Assembly (NCBI GenBank): GCA_958009085.1
Contig: OY253675.1
Location: 372,001-436,000, forward strand
DNA length: 64,000 nt
Direction: 5' to 3'
Source of the DNA: Protoeuglena noctilucae
Lineage: Eukaryota
In this document: positions 9,285 to 42,800 of the stretch, one piece after another
How positions within the stretch are numbered: position 1 is the stretch's first letter
Layout: each line of letters opens with the position of its first letter
The notes under the pieces: model-generated
What the model saw: only the letters and a program-made list of their open reading frames with translations
What the model was told of the DNA's origin: nothing
The model's database searches: none
Translations under genes and position numbers: made by a program

Positions 9285-12200
9285 TCATGCCTCTCCCCAG
9301 TCGTCGTCATCCAAGTCCAGCTGGTCCTGAGAATGGAGATAGAATAGGATCGCTTTGCTAATTCAGTACAGTTGCTAACTAAGTACAGTATAACTCACTT
9401 GTCACTACCTACACAGCATACATAGCACGAATGGCAACACTGATGCAATGACGCTACCATCCACCCACTCACGTCCGCATCAGCCCCCTCGTCCCCCAGA
9501 TCCACGTCACGCACCAAATCGTCAATGCCCTCCAAGTCATCCACCTGTGGGGTGATGAAAGAAAGCAACTATTTCAATGAGTATTAATAAGTGATGGCAG
9601 ACTCATCGCATCGCCCGCCACAGCCCGCAACGCACCTCCGCTCCCGCAACCCCCGCCCCCGCCCCCGCCGCCACCCCAGCCGCCCCCACCGCCCCCTCCG
9701 CCCCCGCCGTCTCCGTCACCGTCGCCAGCCCCGCCGTCGCTGCCGCCGCCCCCGCCGCTGCCCCCCCATCTCCCGTCTCAGTACCCCTGAACCCCCCTTC
9801 AGGCTGCATGGGCGTCCCACCATCCAACGCGCCCGCATTCGGCATGCGATTGACGATCGAGAAAGAGTCGGACGTTCGAGGTCCCATGGAAAGAGAACCG
9901 GAGGAGATGCCAGAAACACGGGCGTCAGTGGCTGGCATCTCGAGGGTGGGGGCCGGGCGGGGCTTGGCAGCGGGGGCGGGTGCGGGTGCGGATGCGTTGC
10001 CGTTGGAGAGGAGGGGGGCTGCGGGGGTGGGGTTGGGGATGAGGTTGTGGGTGAGGGTGGCAGTGGGGGTGGGGGTGGAGGTGGAGGTGAGGGTGGCAGT
10101 GGGGGTGTGGGGGTGAGGTGAGGGTGGCAGTGGGGGTGGCAGTGGGGTGGCAGCGAGGGTAAAGAGATTGTGAAGTGGACTTACCACCCCGAACACTCTA
10201 CCATTCAACTACCCCACTCCATCACACCCACTCACCCCCCACGGGCATGGATCTCATCAACGCCACCAGATCCACACAGTCACCCACCACCCCATCCCCG
10301 CTCACTGACCCCCCAGCTACCCCCCCACCACCCCACATCCCCACCACCCCTCACTCACCCCCCGCGGGCATGCTCCTCATCAGTGCGACCAGATCCGCCA
10401 CCTCCTCGTCCGCCACATCCATGTAGTCCCCCGCGTCCCTGCCCCCCATCTGCTGCCTCATGTTCTCCGCTTTCAAGAGGTCAGGGTAGTCGGGGAAAGC
10501 CTCGGGGTTGCGGTCGGGGTCCGCCAGGCCGTCGGCCACGTGCGTGAGGGACTGGGAGTGGGTGCTGGGGGGGTGGGGGGAGGGTGGTGGGTAAATGAGT
10601 GAGTCAGCGACTGGGAGTGGGTGCTGCGGGGGTGAAGGGGGGTGAGTGGAGGTGAGGGGCGGTGAGTGAGTGGGGCGGGTGGGTCAGAGACTGTGAGTGG
10701 GTGCTGTGGATGAAGAGAGAGAGGGTGGGGTGGCTGTGAGGGTGAGTGAGTGAATGGGGGTGAATGCGGGTGGGTGAGTGCGTGGGTGAGTGGGGGTAGC
10801 ATTAAGGGTGCTTCACACATCTACACCCACCCACTCCACCCCTCACCTCAGCTCCTCCCTCCACATCCCGACCGCCTCCGTTACACACACACACACAACA
10901 TCCACACCCCACCCCACCATCACCCCCCACATGTATGATGCATACATAAACAAACCCCCAGCCCCCTCACCTCAGCTCCTCCCTCCACATCCCGACCGCC
11001 TCGGCGATGCGCGAGGGCAGGTACGTCCTTGCAAAGAAGGCCGCCTCCGGGTACCTCTTGCACTTGACCAGCACCTCGTAGCACTTCTCGACGTTGTTCG
11101 TCAGGTAATGGCCCATGAACGCCAGGTTGTGCTGGCCCTGCTGCTCGGCGCGCGTGGCGAGCGAGGACATGCCCTCGCGGTTGCCCTGGGGTGGAAGGTG
11201 GGAGAGGTGTGCGTGAGAGATGTCAGTACAATAACATCGACAACATTGTTACAATCATAAAAATATTAGTCGAAATACCAAGTGATAATACATGGTAAGT
11301 GACAACTACTGAGAAATAAGTGACAAAGTATCAATAGAATCAACAACAATCCATAACACCCACACCCCTACCCCCTCGCCTGCGCGGTGTAGATGAGCAG
11401 GAGGGTGGCCAGGTCCCCCGCCCTGGTTGCCGCTTCGGCCGCCTCATCCACCGCCCCCGCCTTGATCGCCAGCTCCCCGATCTGCCGCCATTTGGTATCT
11501 GACTCGTCGCTCGCCGCCAGCTGCATGGCGTCCGACAGCCGCCCCAGCTGCACTGCCAACTCAAAGCGGTAATCGGGGTCCACCGCCACGTGGAAGGCTT
11601 TCTGGGGATGATATGGGAATTATATTCATAATTTTACTTATAGATAGTCATATTGTTTGTAATGGGGGGGGTAGTCGGGGTCCATCGCCACGTGGAAGGC
11701 CTTTGGGTGTAAGGGATGGCAGTGACAATGACAGTAATAATAAAAGTGATTATACTTCTTATAGTTGTTACCAGTCCCCACCCCACTTCCCACCCCCCCA
11801 TTCACCCCACACCCCATCCCCCCTCACCTCCGCCTGCCCCTTGGCTGCCATACACCCCACCCCACACCCCTCCCCTCACCCACCCCACCCCACTCCACCC
11901 CCCGTAACCCCTCACCTCCGCCTGCCCCCGGGCCGCCAGGAACCTCGCCACGCTGTCCAGCTGCGACTTGGGGATCTGGGGCAGCAGCGCCTGGGCCGCC
12001 TCCTCCTCCCCACGCAGCAGCAGCGTCTTGTACTCGATCACTGCGGACGATGGAATAGCAATGATAGTAAGATATGAACACCGATGTATTGATATGGAGC
12101 GTCAGTGCATTGTACGCAGTCACTGCGAGGATGGTGTGAGAACAACATGGATACTGCAGCCACCCAACCATTCCCTCTCTCCACCCCACCCACCCAACAC

Positions 12201-15058
12201 TCATCACCCCCACCCCCAACCACCCCCAACCCCTCACCCGCCAGCGCGAGGGAGTAGGTCACCACCGCGTAGTCCCGGTCGATCAAATAGAGCCGCTGCT
12301 GCTGGGCGTGGTATCCCAGCAGGTGCATGGGTTTCTCGAGATGCACGATCGTGGTCGTCTCCCCACCCACCGCGTAGTTGAGGCGCCAGGTGGCGTTCAG
12401 ATACACAAAGCACGCGCCGACCCACATGCCGGTGTGAACCCGCTCCTCCACCTCTTGCACCACCTCAAAGGCGTCGCCCAGGCCGTCCTCGTTGTTGATC
12501 TCCGCCCCGTCCGCGAGCGCCTGCTCCAGCGCGGCCGGGTTGTACTGCAGCACGAAAAAGGACGCGTCGCAAAGCACGACCAGGCTCTCCCCGCCCTCGC
12601 TCCACTGCAGGTCCCGCGCCTCCACGTCGATGCGGCGGACGAGCGTGGCGGTGTCCCAATCGTAAAAGCACACGAAGTCCGCCGCCTGCACCCCGATCAG
12701 CCGGCCGCCGAAGATCTTGACCACCGGGAAGGGGACCTTGAACGCGGTCGCCTCTTTGAAGTTCCGGAAGACGCGGATGGTCGATCCGGACTCCCGCACC
12801 GCGAAAAGGTTCGAGTCCTGGCCCCACGCGAAGTCCTGGGCCTGGCCGAAGTGGCGGTTGCGCCAGGCGACGGCGGTGTAGATGATGTACTCGCCATCGC
12901 CACACTGGGAGTGGAATAAGGGGTGGGGTTGGTTTGATATGTGAATTGAGGTGTAGACGATGTACTACCAAAACAGCACATATCACTTTTGCCTGTGTTC
13001 AACTTCCCCTTCCATCATCACTCACCACGGCGATGAACCTCCCGTTGGGCGAGTGCTTGAGGAAGGTGGGGAACACGTCGGCGGTCCCCATGTCCTTGAC
13101 CGCCAAAGGCAGCCGCTCCCCGTCCTGCACCTGGTACTCCCCCATGCTCTTGATGGATGCCGACTGCACCTCGGTGTGTTTGGCCCACACGATCTTGCCC
13201 GTGGTGGCGTCCATGCTGGCCATCGGGTCGTCGCTGCCCATCTTGACCACGACCGAGCCCTCGTCGCAGCCGACGGCGAAGCCGTTCAGGCCCTGGGGGT
13301 GGGGGAAAGGGAAGGGTATGTGAGTGAATGTGATTGAGTGCAAGTACAGCACAGCCGTTCAGGCCCTGGGAGAGGGGAGGGGGGTGGACGGGTATGTCAA
13401 TGAATGTGACTGCAAGTCATTGCGTGTAACGCAGCCCTTTGCGAAGCCATTCAGGCCATCGCATGTCATGGCATGCTCTCTCCACCCTCGCACTCTCACA
13501 TTCACCTTACAGGTCGATGGTACCCACCCATCTCTCTCAATAACCCTCACCTTCGTAGCCGCCAGCGCCCAGCACCGGTCCATGCCGTAGTTGAACGTCT
13601 GCTCGACCCGGTACGTGGTCGCGTGCCACATCCGCACGGAGCTGTCCTCCGATGCGGACAGGATGAGGGGCAGCTCGGGGTGGAAGGCGACCGCGGACAC
13701 GTTGCCCGTGTGGCCCTGCAGGGCCTGGATGCACGCCTTGGTCTGCGGGGCAGGGTCGAGGGGTGGGGTCGTTGAGGTGAGTGTATGAGATAAGAACCTG
13801 TGAGATCACTCCTGGAAAGTGGTTTCTAAACTGAATCTTGTTTTACACACATCAATTCCCACCTTCCACAACCACCCACCCCACTCCTCCCCATCTCTCT
13901 CGCCTGGTAGTCCCACACGCGCACGGTGGCGTCATCCGCGCCCGATATGAGGTACGGCCGGTCCCCCCCAGGGTAGTAGTCGATGCAGTTGACTCCCTTG
14001 GCGTGACCCTCGAGGGTGAAGTTGGGAATCGGCGATCCCAGCGACCATATCTTGACGGTGCAGTCCAGCGAGGCCGTGGCGAAGGTGTTGGGGTCCTTGG
14101 GGTTGAAGACCACCTGCATGACGTAGTGCGAGTGGCCCTCGAAGACCTGCGGGGAGTGAGAGGGTGCGGGGTTGGTTGGGGTCGAATGAATGACTGCCAC
14201 TTGCATGACGTAGAGCGAGTGACCCACTGGGGCGGGGCGGTGATGGTGCTAGTCCTTGCTCCAGTTCCCATTGCGTGCCTCTGCCATCGCTACTCACTGC
14301 CATCTCCACTAAAACGCACCTGCGTGCACTGCCAGTCCTTGTTCCAGTCCCACAGCTTGACCAGCATGTCGTCGGCACTGGTGAGGACGTACGACAGCGA
14401 AGGGTGCACGGCGACCGATCGGATGTAGTCCGTGTGAGCCTCGAAGTCCGCCACCTTCTCCATCGTGTTGTAGTTGTAGACACGAAGGTGCATGTCGTCC
14501 GAGCCCGCCACCACCCACTGCTTGCGAACCACAAACTTGGCGCTACGCACTGTGGCGAGGGACATACGAGAGACGGGAGCTGATCAATGCGACTTGCAAT
14601 CCAGAAGGGTCAAGCGGTGTTGTCAACAATTTGTGTTGCCCACACACAGAGCAAGGTGCTTCATACTAGGGGCGCTCGCAACGCTTACGCAGACACAGGT
14701 GAAGCGCAAGGAAACAAATCGGTCCGCGCCATCTATTTGACCAGTCGTTCGCGCTCAGCTCACCGGGGAGCTCCGAGACTTCGAAGGACTTGACCACGGC
14801 GTTGTTTTGGTAGTCCCAAATGACCACGGACCCATTGTACAGGTTGGTCAGCAGCCAGGGCTCCGTCGGGTGGATCTCCACGCCCTTGACCCGCTCCGAA
14901 CGTTGCATAAACACGCGCTTGGCGTCCAGGTGGAGCGGCTGCGGGAGGGGACGCGCTGGCTTGTCGGAAAGCGGGCAAGGGGCGCCACGATGAGCGCAGC
15001 GCTGTCTCGCGAGCGCCGGGATGGATCCCAAGCCACAGAAAGTGCGATGCGCGAACAT
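9285..15058 (-). CDS. COPB2: Coatomer subunit beta' (COPI, WD40), ~14 exons
   Basis: Exons [126 protein letters not shown] are diagnostic of beta'-COP/Sec27. The acidic tail ends DDDDWGEA* at 9285. Confidence 0.97.
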
Positions 15059-21277: not shown

Positions 21278-21492
21278 GTCGGGACCGATCGTGGTTCGCT
21301 GTTCACGGCCCGTGCTCCCCGCCATCACTCCAGCCCTCGCGGGGCCGAGATTGCTCGCTGGACTTTGCGCTGGTGCGTGCGGCGCAGGACGCGTGAAATC
21401 CGATCTTCGGTGGCTTCCCTGATTCTCTCTGCGTGCTTGGTGATACCGAGTTAGGGCAGAGAGGGAGGGAGGCGCGCGGGAGCGGGCGCAGG

Positions 21493-23123
21493 ATGCCGGC
21501 AGCGGTGAGACGGTGGGCTCTTGGCCTGCCGTCCCTCCTCCGTGGCCTGGGCAGCGCTGCGAGGTCCGCGGGGGAGGCTTCGACGAGCGAGAGCACCATC
21601 GCGCGTGGTGCGGCAAGCCGCGCGTCCCTATGGAGTTTCGCGGGACGCCTGGATGGGGCCCCTCGCGACTCGCGGCCCGCATGGCCCGGCGTCCGGGGTT
21701 TCGCGGGCTGCGCGTCCTCGTCTGTATCGACATTTCCCTCATTTTTCGGCGGATGGGGTGGCATGGGGTCTTGGGCGCGCTCCTTCGCCAAGAATGCCGT
21801 GGCGGGGGAGGCGGGGCTCAAGCGATACCGCCCCGTGACGCCCGGCCTGCGCCACCGCGTCATCACCCGGCGCAGCGATCTCCACAAAGGCCCTCCCGTC
21901 CGCGCTCTCACGGAGGCCAAGAAGCGCATCGACGGGAGGAACAACCACGGCAAGGCGAGCAGCGTTTGGATAGGGAAGCACAACGACACCTGCGCAGTCT
22001 CTTCGCGGCTGCTAGAAGCCACTGGGCGACCCGCTGTTCTCGTAAGACAGAGATGATCGTCAATATCAAATCATTCATGGGCTGTGACCGATCATCAATC
22101 ATCCGCGCGCAGAGGACTCGGCGACACCGCGGGGGGGGCCACAAGCGCAGGTATCGCGTCATCGACATGGGGAGGGCCGTGCGGGGGACGCAGGGAACGG
22201 TGCAGCGGATCGAGTACGACCCCAACCGGACCGCGCGCATCGCTCTCGTCAAGTACGACTCTCTTGCAGAGCAAGGCGAACAGACGGGCCAGCGGGACTT
22301 CGCGGACGGGTTGAGGTGGGCCGCCGGCTGCGGTGCGGTGATCCGTCGCAGAGCTTGGGTTTGTCGAGCAGAACGTAAGTCACGAAGGCCTCGCTCCTGG
22401 GTTGCAGGTACATCATCGCTACCGAGGACATGGCTCCGGGGATCGAGGTGGCGGCGGGGCCGGACGCCCCCGTGAAGACGGGGTGCGCGCTGCCGCTCGC
22501 CAGCATCCCTGTCGGCACCTTTGTGCACAACGTGGAGCTGTACCCAGGGCGGGGCGGGAAGCTGGTCCGGGCGGCGGGGACCCAGGTGGGGGAGGTCTTG
22601 GCTGCACGCGGATGGCGTGAACGGCAAAGCGCGTCGACTTTGTGTCACGATGCTGGGCTTGTCGCCTGCAGGCCCAGCTCATCGGGCGCGCCGACGACAA
22701 GTACTCGATCGTGCGCCTGCCGTCGGGGGAGGTGCGCAAGATCCACAGCGGGTGCTACGCCTCGGTGGGCCGCGTGGGTAACGTGCTCCACAACAACGTG
22801 AAGCTGGGCAAGGCGGGCGCCAAGCGCTGGCTCGGCAGGAAGCCGCGGGTGTGCGGTGTCAACATGAACGCGGTGGACCACCCGCACGGGGGCGGCAAGG
22901 CCCGCCACGGGCCGGGGAGGCCCAACGTATCGAAGGTGAGCGCAGTGCTCGGTGGCATCGCAGGCGGGCGCGGGCTGGAAAGTGCGTGGGGGCTGACGTG
23001 TTTAACGCTGCCATGCCGCCCTGACCGCAGTACGGCGTGCTCGCCAAGGGAGGCAAGACCAGGAATCCTCGGAAGCCGAGCAACGCGTTCATCATCACCT
23101 CCCGGCGCGAGGCCAGGGCGTAG
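21493..23123 (+). CDS. rpl2: Organellar (probably mitochondrial) ribosomal protein uL2 with N-terminal targeting extension; exons 21493-21954, 22113-22315, 22408-22585, 22672-22935, 23031-23123
   Basis: [110 protein letters not shown] are bacterial-type L2 motifs. All junctions keep frame. Confidence 0.96.
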
Positions 23124-23405
23124 TTGGCGGTGCGCATGCTTGGATGGCTTCCGTTTCTGCGACTGCGAGTGCGTTCGGCGATGCCTGGCGCTGCACAGTC
23201 AGTTGCTCTGGACTGGCTGGCGTGCATTGAATTGGCTTTGGAAACCTGAAAGGCGACCCGACAGCTGACTGCGGGCTGACAGCTGTCCCTGACAGGTGGG
23301 GCTGCAGGAATCGGGCTTAAATAGCTCTCGCCAAGCCTCGAGCGCCACAGTTCCTGCCAACTTCGATCGACCTGCTTGACGGCCGGCCACTTCGCTGATT
23401 CGACA

Positions 23406-25704
23406 ATGAGGAGTGCTGCCTTCTTCGGCGTCGCTGCGGCGGCGCTCGCCCTGGCGAGCGGCGTTCAGGGTGAGATTTTCCGATGAGCGCTTTATTATCT
23501 CAATGTCTATCGCTTCACCGTCTCTGATCAGGACGCGGAGGAGTGTCCGCCTCTCTGGGACCTCGCGGGCCACCCTGGCCTGCGGACGCCGCAGCGCGGT
23601 CAGCGCTGGCCCAGGCACCGCAACGACCCAATGACCGCATTTATTGTATTGTTAATAGTCATTGAGGCGTGCCAGATCAGGTTGACGGGTCCCTGGTTTG
23701 CCGCTGTTGGCGCTCCCGCCTGCTGCCTTCAAATTGCTCCTGGTCGCTGACGCCGCTTCCCTGCGCCTCCGCAGGCCACCGCATGCTCTACGGGCAGGCC
23801 AACCAGGCTGCGTCGGGTCCCGGGTCGATCCTCCAGGTGCATATGCGCCTGCACGGCACGGGCGTGTCCGTGTTGCCCCTGCGCCGCTATGCCCGCCGGC
23901 CCGCCTAGCCGGGACCGGCAATGCGCACATAGTAGTCGTAAGAGTGCGCCATGAGGTTGCGATTTCAGAATCACCGACTCTTTGGCCTCCGTCCCTGCCC
24001 CTGCAGCTCAACCAGGGCGACAGCACTGGCACGGGTAACCAGGCCAACCAAGCCGTGGCCGGCGACGCGGCGAACGCCATTCTCCAGGTTTGTCGCGCGC
24101 TCGCAGATGCACGGCGTCCACCGGCGCGCTTGTTGGCAATGATGCTACCCTCGCCTACCCTACCCTGCCTCGTGCCCCTGCAGCTGAACCAGGGCGACTC
24201 CACGGGCAACCAGGCCAACCAGGCCGTGTCTGGCGTCGTGTCGGCCCCGCAGCCCACATCTGCCCCCCAGCCGACGTCCGCGCCGCAGCCCACGTCGGCG
24301 TCCATCGCCAGCGCTCCGGTGAGAGCCCATGCTGAGTATGTCTTGATGTCTGTCAGCTCGATGTCTTCAGCCCCCGGCGCGTCCTGGTTGTTACATTTGC
24401 CTCCCTCTCTCCTTGCTCGCGCAGAGCGCCTCGTGGTACGTCGTGCACCACGGCCACCAGGCTCAGGGTGCGACCTACACGAGCTACGTCGCGCCGGCCA
24501 CGACCACCACGACCACCTACTACACGGTGTCCTCCAGCGACCCCGCGCCCGCGCCCCCGGCGCCCGTGCAGACCGTCTACGTCGTCAAGTCCAGCGCCAA
24601 CGCCCAGACGATCCAGCTCAAGTGCGACTCGGGTGAGCCCCTGCATGCGGCTGCCCAGCTGTATCCAATACCTGCAGCTGCCCTGTCGACTGCATGCACA
24701 CCCATGTCCATGCTGCCACGATATCACAGCTGCACTGGTGTGTTGACCAAGCTCGCCTGTGTGCCCCCGCAGTGATCTCCGACCTCGCCTCCAACGGCCT
24801 GACGCTCGACAACCTCTCCTCCGCCGACCTCTCGATGGTTGTCGTGTCGTGCGGCTGCCAGATGCTCATCAAGCAGCTCCAGGCCAAGGGCCAGTCCAGC
24901 CTGATCCCCAAGGTCCAGGCCGTCAGCAACGGGTGCCCCTCGGCCACAGTGGCCAGCGCCCCCGAGCAGCTGCAGGTCATCGTGAAGGCGCTGCAGTCCG
25001 CCGCCTCCACCTCCTCGTGCGGCGCGTGCGTCCAGGCCGCCACCGCGGCCGCGTCCCAGAACCTCTCCACGATCGTTTCTCAGCTGAGCTCCTCCCAGCA
25101 GGCCGCGGCCGCCTCGGCCCTCCAGAGTGTCGTCTCGACCCTCGGCTCCGGCACCTCCAGCACTGCCCAGGCGTCCCAGGTGAGCCCGCTGGCGCTGCAG
25201 GCAGCTCTGCCTCCGCACGACGGCATGCTCTCTGCGCAGAGCAGAGACGGTGCTGCGGCTGGCCCAGGCATGCGAAGCCTCACGATGCTCGCCCTGCCTG
25301 CAGGCCGCGAGCGGCGTGCAGAACGCACTGATGCAGCTGAGCCAGGGCGGGAGTGCCAGCGGCAACCAGGCGAACCAGGTGCGCTTACTCCGCCACGCTC
25401 CCGGCACTCGCCTCGCTGGCGCGCTTGTTCCCATGGCAGTCTCTTGTGCCTCGCACGCAGGCCGCGACGGGCACCGGGTCCGGGGCTGTGCTCCAGCTCA
25501 ACCAGGGCGACAGCACCACCGGCAACCAGGCCAACCAGGTGAGAAGGGCCTTCGCAGATCCGCGTGCTTGATACGGCATCGCAGCTCTGCAATCAGCTGC
25601 TCTGCCTCACGCAGGCTGCGGCGGGCACCGGCTCCGGGGCCATCCTCCAGCTCAACCAGGGCGGTGGCTCCGGCAACCAGGCCAACCAGGCGGCGACGAA
25701 CTGA
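23406..25704 (+). CDS. Secreted 399-aa protein with Q/N/G-rich repeats (LQLNQG-x3-5-GNQANQA) at both ends, a Pro/Thr linker and a 6-Cys central domain; exons 23406-23469, 23775-23836, 24007-24087, 24184-24318, 24425-24632, 24773-25179, 25304-25378, 25461-25538, 25615-25704
   Basis: All eight introns are GT-AG and the exons sum to 1200 nt in one open frame. Exon 1 is a signal-peptide-like MRSAAFFGVAAAALALASGVQG. Codons are strongly C/G-ending. Confidence 0.85.
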
Positions 25705-25916
25705 GCCCTCTCCTTGCGTCCCTTCCACCTCCCCGCACTAGATCTGCACGCGCGCTGTAGCAAGTGACCACGAGTCTTAGACAGATGAGCTGGGCGATAA
25801 GAGCCCTAGCAGCAACCCTTTCCAGCGGTTTGGGCACTCGGACTTTGAAACCACCTCGCAATGCTACCTAACGACACCCACGACATCTGCCACACGTACC
25901 CATCCCTGCCAGCGCG

Positions 25917-27509
25917 CTACCCATCCCCCACGACGCCCACATGTGGCGCAGACGTGGCCACGCCGCCCACGCCCTCCTCCTCACCCCACCCCTCTCCCTC
26001 CTCCGCCTCCACCACCACCTCCGTCTGTGCGGACGTCCCGAGCCACTTGCCCTGTGTCGCCTCGTACAGCATCACCCCCGAGAGCTTCTGCACGCCGGGC
26101 TGTATGCCGACGAACGACACGTTCAGCACACGTGACTCTCCCGGCCCAAGAGACGGCATGTTGTAGGCCAGGGGACCGATACTCACGACCGCCCGCCCCG
26201 CCTCCTGCGCCCCCTGCTGCCCGTCGGACCCAGCCGCGGGCATCTGGACTCGGAACGGCCCCGCCGCAGTGAGGCCGCGGTTGGTGACGACCACGTGGGC
26301 GCGGAACGGGTCGAGGTGTCGCACGTGGGCGGGGAGCGACGTCACTTCGATCTGAACGGAGCTGTTGGATGTGGACGGGGCCGACACGGGCTGCGTTAAC
26401 AGCTTCCCTCGCTGGCCCTGGTGCGCGACCCACCCGACCTCCAGCCGCCCCAGCGCCCCGCTCTGTGCGTGTAAGAAGGCGGACGCAGGGTGGAGCGGCC
26501 ATGCAAGGTCACCACGAGACCCCTAGGTTCCACGCTACATGGAACCTTAGAGTATAAGCAAGCGCAGTTCATATAACCATGCAGCTCCGCAGAGTCTCAC
26601 ACCTCGAGGTCAGGCCCGGTGGCCTTGAAGACCATGTGGTACGACCCGTTGTTCGGCTGCAGCTGAATGGTCCTTCCCGGCTGCGACCCGTCCTCCCATT
26701 CCAGCGCTGGCCTGCTCTCTGACGGTGACTGTGCGAGGCCCAGCCCGTCCTCCAACAGAGGGGGCCGTAGAGTGTGCACGGTGACTCCGTCCGACGACGA
26801 CGGAGCCAGGCACGGCGCGACGAGGAGAGGGCCGTCCGTCTCGTTCTCTACCCGAACCTGGAAGAAGGCGAAGCGTGGTGTTAATGATGAGATCGCGGGG
26901 CGCGGCGCCTGGCCTGTTGTGGCAGCCCAGGGGCCATTTGCAAGACGCCAAGACTCGCCTCGAGGAGCGCGAAGGGAGATCCGGAAGCGGAGAAGTTCCC
27001 GCGAACGCTGCGCACTTTGGTGCGGATGCCAAGCGGATAGGTCGCGCTGAAGGACCAGTTTGTCGAGCACGACAGGACCACCCCGTTCGCAGCGGTGAGC
27101 CAGGCCGTCAGGACCACGGATTGGACCCCCGGTGACCGGACGCTAAAGTTCACGACCGTGCGGACGGCGGCGCCTGCTTCCTGCGCAACCGGGCGAGCGG
27201 GGCTCTCATGAGAAGCGCAAGCAGGTTGCGACGAACCGTGCGCGCTCGCGTGGGCTCCCGAACCCTCACCAGGACATCCAACGGTTCCGCAGTGTTTGAA
27301 AAAAGGACGTCCGGACGTACGCCCTCGACGGCGTGCTCCACGCGGAGCACAACGCGCGTGCACGCCTCGCGCTGTTGGGAGACGACCCCGACCTCCAGCC
27401 CGATGTTCTCGCCGAGGTACACGGCCGAGCGGATAGGAACGACCACGCGGTCCTGCTGCGCGAGCCCGAAGCGCCCAATCGTGAACTTGACGGGCGACTG
27501 CGAGGCCAT
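25917..27509 (-). CDS. TRAPPC13: TRAPP complex subunit 13 (TRAPPC13/Trs65)-like, ~4 exons
   Basis: SAVYLGENIGLEVGV (cf. xIYLGETF), WSFSATYPLGIRTKVR (cf. FKFxVxxPLxVxTK), and the C-terminal Ig-like segment LNVSFVGIQPGVQKLSGVMLYE (cf. GxQxISGxxLxD). Divergent. Confidence 0.65.
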
Positions 27510-30600: not shown

Positions 30601-33600
30601 CACCGCGTCACTGCTCAGGATCGCGTCCAGCACCTCCCGGCCCTGCTGCCCGGCCTTCTCGGTCTCGTGGATGCGCCAGAGGGACCAGGTCGCGGAGTCC
30701 TGGGATGGCAGGCGAGGGGTCGATATGATATGAGTTGCATGGTAATAGGGAGTCAGCAGCCACAAGTAGATTGTGACTACAAATCGTGATTCCTAACAAC
30801 CTGTCTAGTTGAGGATAGCTCTACCCTCACCTTGCCCCACATCTACGCACAGCTGCTCTACACTAACCACAACCGCAGACCCGAACCCTCACCTTGACTG
30901 GGTCCTCCCCCTTGGGCCTCCCGCTCTCCTCCTCCAGCTCGCTCTGCACCCTCCGCGCCGTGTGCACCAGCGACGCCCGCCGCCGCCCCGCCAATGCCGC
31001 CGCTGCCAGTCGCTCCCCCGCCCTCGCCTCGCGCATGCGCTCCGCCACCTCCGCCCACACCCCGGGCAGCTCCAACGCGCTCAGCTCGGGAATGCGGTTC
31101 TTGCCCGTCGGCTCCGCTTCCACCGGATCGGTCAACTGGCGTGTCAGGTTACCCAAGCAGCCCGCCTCGACCACCAGCGGCAGACACCTAGGCACGCCCT
31201 CCGCGATGTCCGCCAGCGTCCCGCACGCCGCGATGCGCGCGCTCGCGTTGCCCGAAGCGAGGACCTTGTTGATGATCGTCACGTACTGCTTGTCGGCCAC
31301 CAACGCGCGTGTGGCCTCGCCACATGTCAGCCGCCACAGCGCCCACATTGCGGCTGCTTGGGCCCGGCGGGACCCGTAGACGAGCAGATTGACTAAGAGA
31401 GGGACGGCGCCGGCCTTGGCCACGGCCTTGCGATTGGGGCCGGTCTTGGAAATGTTGACTGCGGCGGTGGGGGGTTGTGTGTGTGGGGGTGTTGGTAGGG
31501 TGGTGCGAGGTGCGGTGGGAGCATGCACGGGGTAGCACTAGGAGCGGTGTGTGTGAAGTCAACAGCCAAAACCAACCAAGTTGCACAATCATCACAAGCA
31601 ACTACCAGCTCACCGAGTCCCCACGCGGCGTCCTTCTTCCCCCCATCCGTGCCCTGGCACAGCAGGTCCACCAATCCCCGAACCGCATCCAGCACCTCGC
31701 GCTCCCCATCGCTCTCGCTCGCATCGGGCTCCGCCTGCCGGGGCGCCGCGGGCTTTAGCAGCGCCGCCGCGCTCTGGGTCACCACCTTCACGAGCCGCTC
31801 CATCGCCCCCGTTTCATACAGGGTCCGCTTGGCCAGCGGGTGACCCGTGAGCGCCCACAGCGCGATCGCTGACGCGTCTCGCACCTCCTGCACCTTGCTC
31901 CCCAGCAAGTTGACCAGGATCGGCAGCGCGCCGGACTTGGCGACGGCCGCTTGCACTTGGAGCTCCCCAGCAGCCAGCTGCGTGATGCAACGGGCGGCCG
32001 CGGTGGTCGCGTCCACCCGACCCTCCGCCTCCTGCAATTGCCGCACCAGCCCCTCCAGGCCCCCCGCCGCCACCACCCGCGCTTTGGATTCCGACGTCTG
32101 GCAGAGCACCGTGACGGCCCGGGAAGCCTGCACTTTGCCCTCTAACTTGGCGTCACGCAACACGGCCGCCAACGGTTCCAACACCCCCGCGTCGATCATC
32201 AGCCCCCGCGCGCCATCGCCGCTGACCGCGATGTTGTGGACCGCCAAGCACGCGGCCTCCCGGCAGCCCTCGTCCGCGCTGCGGCATGCGTCCATGAGCG
32301 GCCCCGCCGCCCCATGCACCTCCGTGATGACACGCACGTTCGCCGGCAGCTGCGCGAGCACCGCCAGCGCCCGCGCGGCCCACTCCCGCGCGGAGTTGGC
32401 CTCGTGCCGCAGCAAGTCGACCAAAGGGGGAATGCACCCGATAGCGGCCGCGTGAGACTGCACGTCTTTGTAAGCGTCCGCCACGGACTCGAGTGCGCGA
32501 GCCGCTGCCTCGCGGCACTTCCAGGGGACCTTGGAGTAGTCCGGGCCCGCAGCGGCGGCTCCCTTGCCCTTGCCGCCGGCCGCTGGGGGGGGTGGGGGCG
32601 GCTCGGCCTCGTCGGCTTTGGTCGGGTCCACCACCTGCGGTGTGAGGGAGAGAGGGAGGAGAGATTTGAATGTAAGGCAACATAAGAGAGAAGAGGGATT
32701 TAAATGAGCTGACTCGTCAATAATACATCGACAGCATGCTTGCCTGTGACTTGCAATCACCGACACACCAACACATGGATACCCCCCCTGCCACCCACTC
32801 ACCTCCCCGCCCAACAAAATTACCAAGCTCTCCACGCCCCCTGCCTCCGCGATGTCTCTCTGAATGGGCCAGTGACCCTTGGCCAGATTCGCCAGCGCCA
32901 ACGCCGCAGCTGTGCGAGACTCGTGGTTCCCCGTCTTCACCAACGCGACTAATGGACCGATGGCCCCGATCACGGAAATGAGTATCTGCGTGGCTTTGGA
33001 GTTGGTGGCCAGGTAGCCCAGGGCGCCGGCAGCCGCGCGGCGGCCTTCGTCGTTGGTGAAGGGGCTGGGGGGGGTTGGGGAGGGAGTGGGGGGAGTGAGT
33101 GTGGTAGTAAGTGAGTGAATGAGTGAGGGAGGGAGTGTGGGAGTGAGCGAGTGGAGGGTCCACCTCTGCAGCACCTTCGTCATAGCAATAACAGCTCATC
33201 CACCACCCTCACCCCACTCACCTCTGCAGCATGGTGATGATAGCATTGGTAGCTCATTGACCCCACCCCCAGTCAACTCACCTCTGCAGCATGGTGACCA
33301 TGGGCTCGATCGCCCCCGCATTGATGATGCGCCTTACGCTCTCGGTCACCCCAGCCAAGTTGACCAGCGCATTGGCAGCGATCTCCTTGCCCCGCTCCGA
33401 TCCCTGGATCAGAATGTCCACCAGCGGCTCGATCCCGTCCGCTTTGGCTGCTAATGCCATGTTGTGGTGATTGTCAGAAACCAAGTCGCGAATCGCGGAC
33501 CCCGCCACCTCTTGCGCATGCAGCGCGATGGCCTGCTCCACCTCCCGGCCCAGCTGAAGTAGACGAACGATGCTGCGGGGACAGATGGGGTCAGTATGTT

Positions 33601-36422
33601 GTAAGCATGTTGTGAGTATATATCCCTTGCTGGTCCTTTGCTGCAACGTGAGGGTGTAACTATAAACCCTTTCACCCAGACCGCATGCCACAGCGACTCA
33701 CCCCGGCCAGCTCTTCAAGTGCCATGTAAGGGACAACTACCAAGCATCACCAACACAGCCACCACACAACACTACCACACGCCTTAATGACTCACCCCGG
33801 CATCGCCTGCTCCTCGGCGGCAATCAGGTTTTGGTTGGCCCGGTGACCGCTGCAGAGGTTCTTAAGCGTATTCGCCACCTCGATCCTCGCGCTCACATCC
33901 GTGTGGTTCCCCAGCGCCCGCACCAAGTGAGGCACCGCCCCCGCCTCGGCCACCGCCGTCTGGTTCGCCTCCAAGTTGCGGTCCGCCAGGGCCCCTAACG
34001 CCGCGGCGGCCACCTCGATCGTCGCGCTGTCGTCCGCGGCCAGCAGGGCCACGAGCGGCGCCACCGCCCCATCCGCCGCCAACGTGCGCTGATTGGTGGG
34101 GTATGCCGCCAACACCCGCAACGCCAATGCGGCCGCGCGCTTCGACGCGGGAGATCCGGAGACGACCGTGTCGACCAGCCTGGGCCCCAGCCCAACCTTG
34201 CACATCTGCTCTTGGGCCGGACCGTTGGCCTCGCCCAACGCGGCCACCAGCATCGCTGCGGAGCGCCTCATGTCCTCGTGGGCCTCAATGGCCTCGGGAG
34301 TTAGCACGATCTCACGCATGGACTCCGCTGCGGGGGAGGGAGGAGGGGTTGGGAGGTGGGGTGGTGTGTGGGGTGGTGCGTGGGTGTGGAAACGTGGGCG
34401 ATGGCGTGTGGCGTGGGTAAGGTGGCTACGGCGGTGTGTGGGAGCGGCACGGTGGGTGAGGATGCCATTTTGCAACACGCACATGTCCCACACGTCCCCA
34501 CTTGCCACCCTCAATCGCGCCCTACGTACAAGGTTGTCCTTATCTCATCGCCTCCCACCCCCATCTCCCACTCATTTTTAGTTACTCACCTGACTCAAGT
34601 GCGTCCTTCCCGGCCTTGGCTGCGGGCGCCTTGTCCTTCCCTTTGCCCTTATCCTTGCCCCCCGCACCCGCGCCCTGCCCCGCGACCCCCGGGGGACTCA
34701 GCATGTCTGACAGAGCGTCCATGGAGCCCCGGAATGCCAGAAACGCGTCCTGGTTACCCTTGTCCTTCGTGCACACCGACCTGACGGGGGGGGGGAGCGA
34801 TGGGGGGTGTGGAGGGATGTGGTGCGTGGGGTGTGGAGGAAGTGGGGTGAGCGAGTGAGATGTGGGACACCCCATCCACAGCTGCTTTGACACCCGCCTA
34901 TCCCATCCACGACAGTCCACCCCATGTCCCTGCAGAGTGGTACCACTGCCCCTCACCCGAGCGCCTCGGCGGCAGCCACCCTGTTCTCCCTGACAGGCCC
35001 CTCGATCAGGAACCCAGCGAGGGCCTCGATCCCCTGCGCCTGCGCCACGAGGGCGCGGTTGGGGCGCGAGACGGCGACGGCCGCGAGGGCCTTGGCCCCG
35101 GCGCGCCTGGCCGGGTCGGGCATGCGGCTGCCAGAACCAACAAGCGCCACCAGGGGCGGGATGCCGCCCAGGCTGGCAATCACAGCACGATTGCTCTCCT
35201 GGAAGAGCGCGATGTCCTCGAGGGCCAGCGAGGCCAGCTCCCTGCCCTTGCTGGACCCCGATCGGACTAGATCAATCAGCACGCGTGCAATCGTGTCGTC
35301 GCGCGTCATGTCCTTGTTCGCATTGGAATCAAGGACGAGGTTGCAGAGGGCCTGCTCGGCGTCCAGCTTGCCCTCCTGCGGCACGTCCTCGCTCTGAAGC
35401 AGCCGCACGAGGGGTGGGATGGCGCCAGCCGAGATGACGCTGGCACGGAGAGCGTCGTTGGCCGCCAGGTTCATCAGAGCACCCGCGGAGGCGACCTTGC
35501 TGTCCAGGTCCGCGGAGGACAGCAGCGCGACGAGCGGCGCGACGGCCCCGGCCTTGGCGACCGACGACTGCAGCCCGGTGCTGACAGCCAGGTTGCGAAG
35601 CGCGATGGCGCACACACACTTGGAGAGGTGCGAGGGGCCCGTCTCCAGCCACCGCACGAGCAGCGGCACGGCGCCGGCGTCCTCCAGGCGCCCGCGGCAC
35701 CCCTCCGCGTTGGCGAGGGCTCCGATGGCCTTCGTAGCTGCATCCTTGACTGATGGCGAGCCGTCCCTGCAAGATGCCAAAGACCAAGCCGCAGTTTCAC
35801 CCTTTTCAGCCAGGTTGCTGCGCAGTGCGACGCTACGCCATGTAGCAGCGATAGCGAATCGACAGGGGCGCATCGCGGGGCGAGCGTCACCTCAGCAGCT
35901 GCACAAGGGGCGGGATGGCGCCTGCATCGGCCAGGAGCAAGCGCTGCTCGTCCCCGAACGCGAGCTTTTCCAACGCCCCGGCCGCCGCGATCACGCTGGA
36001 CTCCTTTCCCGTCCGGAGGAGCTGCGGGCGGGGACCCAGGGCGCGAGGGTCCCAACGACAGGCGCAGGTGCACGGTTCGCGGCCAATCTCCGCGCGCGAG
36101 GGCACCCGGTCCACCACGGGCGGGATCGAATGGATTCCGTACAATGTAATACAGCCTAGGAGAACTCCTCGCTCCCCGCGGGGTCGCAAGGCGCGCGCGG
36201 ACTCGCCTGCACAAGCCCGAGCTCCTTGTCCGCGGAGAGCGGGAAGTTGAGCGAGTTCCCCGCAATGGCATCTGCGTGGAGAAAGTTGGGCAGAAACGCT
36301 CTGCGGGTTCGAGACGCCGCCGCTCTCGAGCGCAGCGCGGCGACAGCGTCGCCTGTTGGACCGCCCAGGAAGGTCTCACCTTCCTGCGCCCCCTCCCGCT
36401 TGGGGGCCGCGCGCGGCGCCAT
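27669..36422 (-). CDS. Very large armadillo (ARM)-repeat protein, many exons; 5' exon structure approximate
   Basis: Roughly 25 or more ARM units such as AGAIPPLVQLL, AGAVAPLVALL..AAGALMNLA, GAIGPLVALVKTG..AAALALANLA, in long exons (e.g. 31660-32635, 33797-34327, 34957-35767). Ends ISSDEED* at 27669. Confidence 0.9.
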
Positions 36423-39889: not shown

Positions 39890-42800
39890 ATGCGGAGAGG
39901 CGAGCGACCCAGCGAGAGAGCGCAGGCGTGCAGGATCCGCTTGTGCGCAGGCTATCTTGCTTCCAAAGCATTCCTTGTGTGATCGAGTATACCGCGGACG
40001 TGGATCCGGCCGAGCGGGGTGGCCTGGCTGCCGTCGGGAGCACTCCGCTGCTGGGATAACTGTGCTCTGCATTTTCTTCGCCGCTTGGGGTCGATTCCGG
40101 TCTCAGCTTCACAGGCGCGTTGATATTCTTTTTGCAGTCGCGGTGGAGGTCGTCTGGGGTTCCCAGACCCGCGAGACGACGGTGGAGCTGGGGGAGGGCG
40201 ACGCGCGCTACGCTGTGCTCCATGCGGCGCGCGCGGAGCTTCCGGGGGGGTTCGCTGCGGTCAACATGGATCAAGTGACTGTGCTTCTGCCCGATGACAG
40301 GCCCGCGCGGACCGATGAAGACCTGCGCGGCCTCCGGGAGGGCTCCAAGCTGAAGGTCGTCCTTCCTGCCCAGGTGACGCCCGCGCGCGACCCCGGCGCA
40401 GCCGCGCGAGGGGCCCCGATGCATCTTACACAGACATTGCACCTCGCTGCACTCTTGTTGACCCCGCAGGCCTCCGGCCGGGTCGAGGCGGTGCAGTTCA
40501 CGCCGCATCCCAACACGGTGATTATGGCCGGAGACCTCGAGTACTTTGAGTCCAACGGCGCCCACCCATTGGCCTACGCCCTCGCCGAGCTGATCGACAA
40601 CGCCATGCGCGCCACGCGTGACAACCGAGAGGCCCGCAACATCGACGTCAGCTTCGTCCTTGGTGAGTGGCGACTCGCGAAGTGGCCTCTTAGCATAAGC
40701 TTCCTCCGGGCTGGCACAGTCACAGCCATTTGAGCTCTCAGCAACGCCATCCCCCAGCCCTCTTGGCACTGGCAAAGTGCATCTCAGCTTCCTGCACGGC
40801 CCCGCTCGCAGGCCCGAACGACCAGGGCGTGATTTATGTGGAAGACAACGGCTGTGGCATGGACATGAAGGCGCTCAACCAATGGGCGATCATGGGGCTA
40901 TCGATGGAAGATCGCGGGGAGCGGCCAGTCATGGAGGAGCCGCCGGGGCTGCGTGGTGCCGCCAGTCACGACCCCGGCCGCTTCCTGTCCAGCGATCTGA
41001 GCTTCTTTGGCGTCGGATCCAAGAACGCGGTCTTCTACCTCGGCAGCTGCGTCAAGATGGTCACGCGGGCCAAGACATCGAGTCAGGTGCTGGAGCTGGC
41101 GATCCGTGCGGATGAGCTGCGGGACCGGCATCACAAGGGAGAGAACCCTTACCAGGGACAGATCACGTTCCGTGACCCGGGCGACGACAGCACGTTGCTG
41201 ACGGAGGAGGCGCGGCTGCAGGCGGCGAGGGAGAGGGTGGCGAGGGAGGTGAGGAGCTGGTGGGTGGCGATGGATGAGGGAGGTGGCGTGATGATGTGAG
41301 GTGAGGTGATGGTGGTAGTTGCTGCAGCCAGCGTTTCCAGCCAACCCGTGGGACGTTACGATAAAGGGTGTCAAGAGTACCTGGGATGCTTTTGTGTTCA
41401 ACACACTCACATACCACGAAGCGACCGGTGCGTTTGCCGTTTGCAGGCGTCCGCGGGCCCGGCCTTCACCCGCGTCATCATCACCAACCTGAAGGACCGC
41501 GTGCTGGACAGCCTGCGATCGGAGCACAGCGACAGGGTCTGCCGGCACCTGGCGCACCTGTACCACTACTACCTGCACGGGTCGCAAGGCAACGTGGCCG
41601 ACGCGCCGCCCGCCAAGCTGCCCGGCGGGCAAGTGCGGCCCACGATCCGCGTGCAGTTCATCGAACAACGCCAGGGCCGGTCCGAGGTGGTGTGGAGCCA
41701 CGACCTGCGGGAGGTGCAAGACGATTTGGAGACGCGGTATCTGAGAAACAAGAAGTCTACGCTGCATTTTGCCTACGACGTGCCCGACAAGGGGACCGTC
41801 GAGGGCGTGCTCTGGTACTTCCCGTACGACCACGACCGGTGAGCTGGGCTGCACGGTGCATGGGTGCTGTGGCGTAGGCACCACAGCAGCTCAGCCGCCC
41901 AGCCGTCATGCTGGCCGTTACACGAGAGACGCCCGATATGCTCGACGTAACGCCTTCCTTCTAATGCGCCACCCGCAGTGAGACGCTGCCCGTCGACGAC
42001 ACCGTGGACCCCAAGCCGCCCTCCCAGCAGGCCCAGCGCCCGCACGCGCGGCCCGACCCTTCCCGCCTCTCCGGCGCGGCTGCCCGCCACTCCGGCGCCG
42101 GCAGCAGCGGACATGGAGCGGCGGACGACGATGATGACGACGAGGTCCAAATCGTGAACACGCCCAATGCGCCATCGGAGCCCCAGCGCGGCCCCATCTT
42201 CGAGCTCTTCTGGCAGGGCAGGCTCATCCCCGGCGCGCACCTGGACTCGCTGCCTTTCATTGACGAAACGAGGATGGGGCGGAGTGCGACGGACAGGGGT
42301 GAGGGCATGGGGGATAGCGAGGGTGTGAGAAGTGTTAGGGAGGGTGTGGGGGTTGGTGAGGATGTGAGGGGTGTTGGTGAGGGTGTGTGGGGCTCTAAAG
42401 CGCGCAGGGTGGCGCGTTGGTTCGCACGCTGACGATTACAAGTGCAGCTAGTCGGCCAATCACGCCTGCACGCAGACGACATCCCCGACGCCGTTTTCCT
42501 GCGCATCCGCGGCGCGCTGTTCCTGGGCCCTGCGTTCGGCGTCACTCGCAACAAGCTGACCTTCCGCGACAACATCGCGGAGCTGCTGAAGGACGCGCCG
42601 GCAAAGGACAGGCGAGGGAGCAATGCGGGAGAGGCATGTCGTCATGCGGGGCACTTGTTAGTATCACTGTCCATAGAGATGGGAGGAGGGTGTGTTGCAG
42701 TGTAACTGTGCACCTTCATGCCCCACTCACGCTGCTTCTCCCACTGCCCCAGTCAGTGCCCCACTCCCACGTTTCCCACCCCATGCACCTAGCTTGCCCG

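Follow-up and report, generated by a model that had tools for sequence, protein, structure and literature searches.

An intron-rich eukaryotic gene encoding a putatively secreted, modular protein with exon-encoded Q/N repeats at both termini

Within the 64-kb stretch of DNA analysed in this study (referred to as the window), a real and intron-rich nuclear gene was identified that belongs to a GC-rich eukaryote and is restricted to its lineage; the product carries Q/N repeats. Tentatively, this product was interpreted as a lineage-restricted, secreted and modular extracellular-matrix or cell-wall protein featuring putative self-associating terminal Q/N repeats. Self-association of these repeats is plausible, as judged from their sequence. 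The protein appears to be curli-like in its chemistry, while by all tests run it would not belong to the curlin family.

The gene is located at positions 23406 to 25704 of the forward strand of the window. Joining its nine exons by their coordinates (Table 1) resulted in a coding sequence of 1200 nt featuring no internal stop codons and specifying a product of 399 aa. Since all eight introns are of the GT...AG type, the reading frame is kept across nine exons, and the GC3 value of the coding sequence amounts to 0.93 compared to a GC content of 0.63 for the introns, the gene was judged to be real. Exon 1 begins with the first ATG of its open frame, having an A at position -3, and ends at the donor GTGAG. 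Exon 2 is bordered by the acceptor CAG and the donor GTGCAT, ends in phase 0 and terminates with ILQ. Introns 2 and 3 interrupt the repeat at the same position, namely, between ILQ and LNQG, and each unit of the C-terminal block represents an exon of its own.

Table 1. Exons of the Q/N-repeat gene and the protein features encoded by them (positions refer to the window).
Feature	Positions	Strand	Content
Exon 1	23406..23469	+	Start codon, signal-peptide-like N-terminus; aa 1-21 and first base of codon 22
Exon 2	23775..23836	+	End of putative signal peptide, partial unit (23789-23806), first half of unit 1 (23807-23836)
Exon 3	24007..24087	+	81 nt, phase 0-0; second half of unit 1 (24007-24051), first half of unit 2 (24052-24087)
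Exon 4	24184..24318	+	Second half of unit 2 (24184-24222), then (APQPTS)x3 Pro/Thr linker (24247-24300)
Exon 5	24425..24632	+	Thr/Tyr/Val-rich; Thr run, PAPAPPAP stretch, first Cys (aa 181)
Exon 6	24773..25179	+	135-aa middle domain with 5 Cys (CxC, C, CxxC); 3' end is partial unit A-Q-A-S-Q (25162-25179)
Exon 7	25304..25378	+	75 nt, phase 0-0; unit 3, LMQLSQG variant
Exon 8	25461..25538	+	78 nt, phase 0-0; unit 4
Exon 9	25615..25704	+	Unit 5 (25615-25689), 4-residue tail, TGA stop (25702-25704)

Regarding the surroundings of the gene, a Pfam search of 78 + 95 stop-to-stop open reading frames of the window revealed a split bacterial-type uL2, an ARM/HEAT-repeat protein, a coatomer beta-propeller and an SMCHD1-S5 domain. 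As deduced from their sequences, these neighbouring genes appear to represent a eukaryotic nuclear setting. Judging by composition and intron style, the host may well be a green alga.

Five complete Q/N units had originally been predicted, and these were recovered in the joined model, two of them in the N-terminal block (aa 33-57 and 58-82) and three in the C-terminal block (aa 320-344, 345-370, and 371-395). Their lengths were determined to be 25, 25, 25, 26, and 25 aa, respectively; hence, the period is 25-26 aa instead of the approximately 25-27 aa suggested previously. Each complete unit consists of [ILV][LM]QL[NS]QG, followed by three to five residues and GNQANQ. The two partial units that had been proposed correspond to aa 27-32 (G-Q-A-N-Q) and aa 314-319 (A-Q-A-S-Q), and the nine-exon model also bears out the predicted arrangement of an N- and a C-terminal repeat block around the linker and the Cys domain. 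In the six frames of the window, NQANQ occurs five times, each time inside the Q/N-repeat gene. The hexapeptide GNQANQ likewise is present five times, compared to a maximum of three for any hexapeptide in 2000 composition-preserving shuffles (the top count being one in 1880 shuffles, two in 119, and three in a single one). As claimed before, the repeats are almost free of charge, both blocks together containing four Asp, one Arg, one His, and neither Lys nor Glu. Q+N fractions of 0.28 and 0.29, Gly fractions between 0.16 and 0.20 and FoldIndex values between 0.04 and 0.10 were obtained for the two blocks, and their hydrophobic fraction ranges from 0.12 to 0.17 (0.21 to 0.23 for CsgA/CsgB). Of the 399 residues of the whole protein, 48 are Gln and 6 are Lys, and every unit has its Gln at fixed positions; aromatic residues do not occur in the unit.

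Ten columns are invariant across the five units, and at four of these ten positions the codons vary synonymously (CTC/CTG, GGT/GGC, GCC/GCG, and CAA/CAG). On the DNA level, copies of the repeat exons share 68-83% identity, whereas ten intron pairs reach 38-59%, the shuffled expectation being 50 +/- 3%. Furthermore, the invariant residues and the exon boundaries of the unit recur in two database proteins originating from other assemblies (P0002 and P0003). Since the exons are conserved while the introns are at shuffle level, and since the invariant residues are encoded by synonymous codons, the repeat unit is under protein-level selection acting on exact residues, and not on composition.

With respect to the remaining parts of the protein, the predicted signal peptide was recognized by inspection: M-R-S is followed by a hydrophobic stretch of 14 residues and a small-residue c-region ending in V-Q-G. 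Judged by eye, the N-terminus probably represents an ER signal peptide, which is the best supported of the four functional assignments made for this protein. The (APQPTS)x3 linker was confirmed by Tandem Repeats Finder (period of 18 nt, 3.0 copies) and, together with the Thr-rich exon, may provide glycosylated spacers, this assignment being second in support. The six-cysteine pattern C, CxC, C, CxxC described earlier was likewise detected, with Cys residues at aa 181, 210, 212, 238, 266, and 269. Exon 6 additionally features two N-x-S sequons (aa 197 and 280), and its middle domain was modelled by AF2 (single-sequence) as all-alpha at low confidence, with seven helices and a mean pLDDT of 56.2. 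According to this low-confidence model, the Cys-bearing middle could form a disulfide-stabilised helical domain, which ranks third in support. In total, the non-repeat middle between the two repeat blocks is 230 aa long. No Pfam or NCBIfam families were assigned to exon 5. Among 1.84 billion representatives, as well as in a word-index search over the longer range, homologues of exon 6 were not found except for P0001, which is the window's own read-through open reading frame, and neither a usable match in the ESM Atlas nor Foldseek matches of the low-confidence model (E<=0.001) were obtained. Comparison of exon 6 with PDB sequences returned four weak matches, the best of which (E 0.016), a coronavirus S2 heptad-repeat helix, was read as helical composition only.

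Database searches with the repeat were based on a profile whose first row is the frame 24004-24240, running unspliced through the in-frame intron 3. Two fragmentary relatives were detected among 5.8 billion protein clusters, namely P0002 in the longer and P0003 in the near search range, both representing nameless singletons. P0002 showed 48% identity over 130 columns to positions 25179-25568 of the window (E 2e-22), and in both relatives the Q|A and Q|V boundaries of exon 8 are kept. A match of the upstream part of P0002 to the middle exon, seen in an unfiltered tblastn search, was dropped, as no alignment was obtained at E<=100. The profile search of the unit alignment against the PDB resulted in no matches at E<=10, and for the 30-aa unit the best score in the ESM Atlas was 0.82, being below the lead level of 0.9. 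Scanning seven exon translations exon by exon, neither Curlin_rpt nor any other Pfam family was found at E<=10, and four repeat pieces gave no NCBIfam families at E<=1. In the literature, the motif strings led to unrelated items among the matches listed (a flagellin epitope; hemp peptides), and none of the titles among the matches listed for curli or functional amyloid in eukaryotes and algae referred to an algal gene of this kind. In the databases searched, the Q/N-repeat protein is almost without relatives.

A degenerate DNA pattern of the motif core was furthermore searched for in metagenomes, genomes and viral contigs. Matches were found at 13 metagenome and 10 genome loci, all of them representing bacterial nonapeptide arrays, whereas viral contigs yielded none. 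These GG(x)GNQ[A/L]NQ arrays are contained in no family library searched. They share the core Q-L-N-Q-G-G-x-G-N-Q-A-N-Q with the window unit and reside in host proteins with signal-peptide-like starts; the shared core is true by construction, because the motif itself served to select the bacterial loci. In two of the loci (L005 and L006), a 19-aa unit, G-T-G-A-G...NQANQ, lines up with the window unit. In contrast to the period of 25-26 aa in the window, the bacterial arrays have a period of 9 aa, or of 18-19 aa if L alternates with A, at 40% Gly, and the hydrophobic residues preceding LQLNQG in the window unit are present in none of the 23 loci. Blastp E-values down to 1e-10 were obtained between the arrays and the window protein, but in a set of 12 sequences chosen by motif, and the best HMMER score of 6.6 bits (bias 47.5) is insignificant after bias correction. 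The bacterial core motif was found fused to unrelated domains (DUF4189, ankyrin, and a 4-Cys domain). One bacterial protein, L004, with a Gly fraction of 0.40 and a FoldIndex of -0.25, was modelled completely by AF2 (mean pLDDT 40.5); its array (about residues 155-299) appeared as 14 short strands approximately nine residues apart, at block-mean pLDDT values of 49-59, which are too low to use, and no Foldseek matches were obtained for the model.

The two terminal Q/N blocks are regarded as putative self-association modules, which is the least supported of the four assignments. In each unit, [A/S]-x-L-Q-L-x-Q would form a hydrophobic strand and N-Q-A-N-Q a short polar one, the former being followed by a Gly/Ser/Thr turn and the latter by an Ala/Gly turn, and the units may stack via hydrogen bonds of the backbone and of the Gln/Asn side chains. 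With one block at each end, molecules could be linked into a network or fibre. A complex prediction for the last unit (30 aa) in four copies (score 0.09, mark 0.32) spoke neither for nor against stacking. A far-reaching version of this reading, which we consider improbable, would make the protein a eukaryotic extracellular cross-beta building block independent of curli, in which the N-terminal block (2.5 units) of one molecule stacks on the C-terminal block (3.5 units) of its neighbour to give fibres or a network. The gene would then represent the first gene candidate for the amyloid-like material reported from adhesives of terrestrial green algae, and Q-L-N-Q-G...G-N-Q-A-N-Q, occurring as a 9-aa array in bacteria, would constitute a minimal motif for stacking that recurs across the domains of life.

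Few hydrophobic residues and many Gly in the repeats also fit disorder. It is possible, albeit somewhat unlikely, that the repeat blocks are hydrated tails of low complexity and intrinsic disorder, which would provide a wall glycoprotein with a flexible spacer, a lubricant or a gel-forming part, without ordered beta stacking. Their composition (Gly 16-20%, Q+N 28-29%, hydrophobic residues 12-17%, FoldIndex near 0), the absence of a family or structure match in the searches described above and the extreme Gly richness of the bacterial arrays having the same core, such as L004, are consistent with such tails. However, spacers usually conserve composition, whereas here ten residues are invariant in five units and in two units from other assemblies, with synonymous changes at invariant codons and introns that drifted to shuffle-level identity.

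The residue-specific conservation would also be accounted for if the Q/N motif bound a polysaccharide of the wall or some other component of the matrix, the blocks cross-linking polymers and not each other. Blocks at both termini suit a bivalent linker, and the fusion of the bacterial core motif to unrelated domains is what one would expect of an attachment module. Nevertheless, neither Pfam nor NCBIfam revealed a match to a carbohydrate-binding family, and the unit is devoid of the aromatic residues usual in glycan-binding sites, so that we rate this explanation as rather improbable. Green-algal wall proteins are cross-linked by transglutaminase in Chlamydomonas, and the Gln-rich units could accordingly be acyl-donor substrates for transglutaminase-type cross-linking, leading to an insoluble wall. 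The excess of Gln over Lys (48 versus 6) and the Gln fixed in every unit favor this possibility, which is nonetheless quite improbable: the repeat blocks contain no Lys, no partner enzyme is suggested within the window, and it would explain why Gln is conserved, while leaving the conservation of L, G, N, and A unaccounted for.

That the gene is not functional, its open frame having arisen by chance or belonging to a pseudogene in decay, is very improbable. The gene is known from its sequence alone, and long spurious open reading frames are frequent in this GC-rich window; on the other hand, nine exons are in frame via eight canonical introns at a GC3 of 0.93, repeat exons are conserved next to randomised introns, and homologues of the exon type exist in other assemblies.

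A distant relation to bacterial curlin had also been considered in the original prediction, and this part was not supported by Pfam, NCBIfam, phmmer, blastp, hhalign or kernel patterns. The proposed HMM search against curlin profiles, performed with exon pieces of 25-79 aa, gave no match to Pfam Curlin_rpt (PF07012) or in NCBIfam. By phmmer (--max) against the E. coli proteins, insignificant scores of 1.1 bits (CsgB) and -12.4 bits (CsgA) were achieved, and the best blastp E-value against E. coli CsgA/CsgB was 0.11 in a two-sequence database, the corresponding alignment placing unit 3 on CsgB repeats 4-5, with three residues inserted in a turn. Alignment of five window units with ten curlin units by hhalign resulted in a probability of 0.1% (P 0.43). 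In PMC10192328, the curlin kernel N-$-Psi1-$-Psi2-$-Q is described to occur twice per repeat, with the patterns X6QX10Q, N-x5-Q-x-G and ..[AIVLSTG].[IVLQTA].Q.G, and the repeat length is given as 23 +/- 5 aa, a range that includes the 25-26 aa of the window unit. Occurrences of these patterns in the mature protein were compared with the mean of 1000 shuffles, using E. coli CsgA/CsgB as controls. X6-Q-X10-Q was counted 6 times (shuffle 5.4; CsgA/CsgB 7/10), N-x5-Q-x-G 0 times (0.29; 0/5), ..[AIVLSTG].[IVLQTA].Q.G once (1.55; 5/7), and the kernel [NS]-x-Psi-x-Psi-x-Q 3 times (3.2; 9/7). By eye, the first strand of the window unit agrees with the kernel if A or S is allowed instead of N, and N-Q-A-N-Q is all that the second segment offers. 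Genes corresponding to csgG/E/F/B were not found in the 64-kb window (Pfam, 78 + 95 open reading frames), and such genes would not be anticipated in a eukaryote. That the protein is a genuine homologue of bacterial curlin, strongly diverged and of ancient or horizontal origin, is extremely improbable in view of the blastp, phmmer and hhalign values, the silent family libraries, kernel patterns at shuffle level, eight spliceosomal introns and a host-like GC3, even though the sub-motifs Q-G and G-N-x-A are common to both, the best blastp piece joins unit 3 and CsgB repeats 4-5, and the unit length lies inside the curlin range.

Should the repeats of the putative matrix protein stack, a photosynthetic eukaryote would possess an extracellular polymer of the amyloid or beta-solenoid type that is defined genetically, and curli-like chemistry would have arisen on a different repeat frame via exon duplication. 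If they do not stack, the protein would count among the ordinary wall proteins of its lineage, albeit with a low-complexity repeat that is conserved unusually well. In both cases, concrete constructs for testing can be derived from the one-unit-per-exon structure and from the similar arrays of bacteria.

Among known systems, the hydroxyproline-rich wall glycoproteins of green algae are secreted, as predicted for the window protein, and resemble it in being modular, with a Pro-rich spacer between modules. The linker is (APQPTS)x3 in the window protein, whereas pherophorin-type wall glycoproteins have (SP)n or PPSPX, and no Pfam family of the pherophorin type, or any other, was matched on any exon. 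To our knowledge, Q/N repeats are no feature of pherophorin/GP-type wall glycoproteins. Yeast prion-like domains of the Sup35/Ure2 type share with the repeat blocks a high Q+N content, richness in Gly, Ser and Ala, and few charges; both blocks (Q+N 0.28 and 0.29) are Q/N-rich and low in charge as prion-like domains are, in terms of composition only. In contrast to the Sup35/Ure2 type, the window protein is putatively extracellular, and instead of a loose composition it has a unit that is precise in its length of 25 aa and contains invariant residues. Similarity to ice-binding beta-solenoids of the DUF3494 type was detected neither by Pfam nor by the profile search of the PDB (E<=10). We know of no gene assigned to amyloid-like algal adhesives. 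Amyloid-like fibrils have been described in adhesives of terrestrial green algae, i.e., Prasiola linearis and unicellular subaerial algae, on the biophysical evidence of Congo red, Raman and AFM (PMC6628237, citing Mostaert 2006, 2009). This adhesive material is extracellular and proteinaceous, and the Q/N-repeat protein may be regarded as a candidate building block, the link being hypothetical.

The closest resemblance in chemistry concerns curli. CsgA and CsgB are secreted, as predicted for the window protein, and like it they consist of tandem, nearly charge-free units rich in Q, N, G and A, with Gly-containing turns and the sub-motif G-N-x-A. In curlin, stacked strand-arc-strand rungs build up a two-sheet beta-solenoid, and a comparable fold of the window repeats would be hypothetical. 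Bulk composition and FoldIndex are alike (E. coli CsgA/CsgB: Q+N 0.20-0.21, Gly 0.11-0.17, FoldIndex -0.02 and 0.06). In contrast, the kernel is not present twice per window unit, the first turn is longer (5-7 residues, compared to 4 in curli), and the second polar segment has a length of 5 residues. Moreover, the window protein differs from curli in its eukaryotic host, its eight introns and the arrangement of its repeats as two blocks around a long middle part.

Joining nine exons by their coordinates (from 23000-26200) resulted in a coding sequence of 1200 nt, whose only stop codon is the terminal one, and a predicted product of 399 aa. All eight introns start with GT and end with AG, GTGAG...CAG being the majority form, and are 305, 170, 96, 106, 140, 124, 82, and 76 nt long. 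At a window GC content of ~65%, the GC3 value of the coding sequence (0.93) compared to the overall intron GC content (0.63) represents a strong coding signal. The start ATG at 23406 is the first of its open frame and features an A at -3. The encoded N-terminus is basic at its start, continues with a hydrophobic core of 14 residues and a c-region of small residues, and was interpreted by inspection as a putative ER signal peptide. Intron 3 (24088-24183; 96 nt) is stop-free and in frame and, if retained, would separate the two N-terminal units by 32 additional residues with the frame intact; in GC-rich DNA, this may be due to chance.

The original prediction of a Q/N-repeat gene was confirmed, since five complete and two partial units, the (APQPTS)x3 linker, and six Cys residues were all located in the nine-exon model (Table). 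Ten columns are invariant across the five units, namely Q, L, Q, and G in the first motif and G, N, Q, A, N, and Q in the second. NQANQ was found five times in six frames of the whole 64-kb window, in each case inside this gene, and GNQANQ occurs five times, compared to a maximum of three for any hexapeptide when the mature protein was shuffled 2000 times. Within the C-terminal block, one unit corresponds to one exon of 75 or 78 nt (phase 0-0) with introns after NQANQ, the last exon encoding a unit plus the tail. In the N-terminal block, introns split ILQ from LNQG, and exon 3 (81 nt, phase 0-0) represents a circularly shifted unit. These differing intron positions indicate that the two blocks expanded through duplication of exons, each in a register of its own.

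Features of the repeat gene, its neighbours, and example bacterial arrays (nt positions in the window unless marked aa or preceded by a bacterial locus name)
Feature	Position	Strand	Remark
Complete unit 1	aa 33-57		25 aa
Complete unit 2	aa 58-82		25 aa
Complete unit 3	aa 320-344		25 aa
Complete unit 4	aa 345-370		26 aa
Complete unit 5	aa 371-395		25 aa
Partial units	aa 27-32; aa 314-319
(APQPTS)x3 linker	24247-24300		between repeat blocks
Thr/Tyr/Val-rich exon			between repeat blocks
Middle exon	24773-25179		between repeat blocks; 135 aa; 5 of 6 Cys, two N-x-S sequons
Coatomer beta-propeller exon	12041-12964	-	Pfam
Ribosomal protein L2 gene, bacterial-type, intron-split	21444-23265	+	Pfam; directly upstream
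Armadillo/HEAT-repeat gene, large, multi-exon	30866-36375	-	Pfam Arm, E down to 5.5e-28; downstream
SMCHD1-like piece	41300-41839	+	Pfam
Bacterial array	L004:651-1964	+	example locus
Bacterial array	L018:1553-5839	-	example locus

DNA identity among the repeat exons amounted to 68-83%, compared to 38-59% among ten intron pairs, the latter being in line with shuffled introns (0.50 +/- 0.03). Moreover, synonymous codon differences among units were observed at four of the ten invariant residues, and two homologues of the exon type from other assemblies, P0002 and P0003, retain the invariant residues as well as the exon boundaries (acceptor between Q and A, donor between Q and V(GT)). Together, these results point to selection on the exact peptide beyond mere composition.

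The middle exon alone was predicted to be all-alpha with seven helices (mean pLDDT 56.2, pTM 0.38), and a Foldseek search with this model yielded no match at E<=0.001. P0001, the read-through ORF of the window itself, was its sole match among 7999 scored candidates of a 5.8-billion-cluster index and also when 1.84 billion representatives were searched in full with HMMER. With the repeat profile, one of 7988 candidates was obtained in the 'longer' range and one of 315 in the 'near' range. The clusters of P0001, P0002, and P0003 are all unnamed singletons. P0002 matched the repeat gene, including flanking intron frames, with 48% identity over 130 columns (E 2e-22), and this extension into intron frames indicates a close relative as its source. 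P0002 (299 aa, Logan/ENA assembly) also encodes a Cys-rich stretch with the motif D-G-x-C-D-E-G-G...G-T-D-C-x-D-C, which lies upstream of the repeat exon and shares its open frame. This part does not align to the middle exon, and nothing equivalent to it is present in the window gene; judging from this one fragment, the unit may thus be combined with middle parts that vary from gene to gene.

To survey the neighbourhood, 78 + 95 stop-to-stop ORFs of the window were scanned with Pfam. The best solved matches of the L2 gene were bacterial 50S L2 proteins (E 4e-29), and it is presumably a nuclear gene serving an organellar ribosome. The window is a eukaryotic nuclear region, and none of the Pfam-annotated neighbours provided a functional clue for the repeat gene. 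Its GC content, GC3, and short introns of the GTGAG type would be compatible with a green alga as the source.

A degenerate DNA pattern (Q-L-N-Q-G, 2-5 residues, G-N-Q-A-N-Q) matched 13 metagenome loci and 10 loci on eight contigs of seven bacterial genomes, and had no match in the viral contigs searched. All 23 loci are arrays of a 9-aa GG(x)GNQ[A/L]NQ repeat, frequently with L/A alternation, and begin with a signal-peptide-like segment where the N-terminus is present. The longest arrays (~1430-1490 aa, 85-88 NQANQ) reside in two Actinomycetospora genomes, further ones originating from Pseudonocardiaceae and Desulfomonilaceae MAGs and soil contigs; fusion partners are DUF4189, ankyrin repeats, and a 4-Cys C-terminal domain. 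The repeat is covered by no Pfam or NCBIfam model and apparently represents an undescribed bacterial class. For one array protein (L004), a low-confidence AF2 model (mean pLDDT 40.5) featured 14 short strands ~9 residues apart in the array (block-mean pLDDT 49-59), a confidence insufficient for structural conclusions, and had no Foldseek match. Because the hydrophobic residues ahead of LQLNQG were found in none of the 23 loci, bias-corrected HMMER scores against the window protein were insignificant, and the locus set was chosen by the motif itself, the arrays and the unit are treated as sharing a minimal motif rather than as homologues.

The gene product is tentatively proposed to be a secreted matrix or wall protein, in which the terminal blocks would act as self-association modules, the Pro/Thr-rich parts as glycosylated spacers, and the Cys-bearing, predicted helical middle as a stabilising or oligomerising domain. 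The main rival, that the blocks are disordered low-complexity tails, agrees with their Gly-rich, weakly hydrophobic composition, but is at odds with the residue-level conservation of the unit; it is considered only slightly less likely than the self-association proposal. Binding of a polymer by the blocks is improbable, and a role of the repeats as a Gln-donor cross-linking substrate even more so. That the locus is a non-gene is very improbable.

True curlin homology, finally, has a next to negligible probability; the distant relationship originally suggested found no support, and the beta-solenoid or polymer put forward alongside it is hypothetical. Curlin_rpt was absent from a Pfam scan of seven exon translations at E<=10, in which three weak matches without relevance (E 0.2-0.44) were the sole output, and NCBIfam yielded zero matches for the repeat pieces. 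Against CsgA and CsgB from the E. coli K-12 record, phmmer with all filters off gave -12.4 and 1.1 bits, respectively, and the best blastp E-value was 0.11 in this two-sequence database; hhalign of the five units with ten curlin units achieved a probability of 0.1% (P 0.43). According to Sleutel et al. 2023 (PMC10192328), the curlin repeat consists of a pair of N-$-Psi-$-Psi-$-Q motifs linked by X-G-X-X arcs, with a mean of 23 +/- 5 aa. The extraction and kernel patterns taken from it did not exceed the level of 1000 shuffles in the mature protein (6 vs. 5.4, 0 vs. 0.29, 1 vs. 1.55, and kernel 3 vs. 3.2), compared to control matches in CsgA/CsgB of 7/10, 0/5, 5/7, and kernel 9/7. At the level of sequence, the repeat protein is thus not a curlin, the likeness being limited to chemistry and unit length. 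By eye, the first strand of the unit, [A/S]-x-[L/M]-Q-L-x-Q, fits the curlin kernel with A or S replacing N, S also occurring in E. coli CsgA, whereas its turn comprises 5-7 residues and its second segment is N-Q-A-N-Q only. Q+N content, Gly content, and FoldIndex of the blocks are close to those of CsgA/CsgB, but hydrophobic residues are fewer. The protein is thus a clearly delineated orphan, and the hypothesis on it is open to testing. Amyloid-like material reported for green-algal adhesives (PMC6628237, citing Mostaert 2006 and 2009) makes the bold self-assembly reading worth testing, any link of the present gene to this material being hypothetical.
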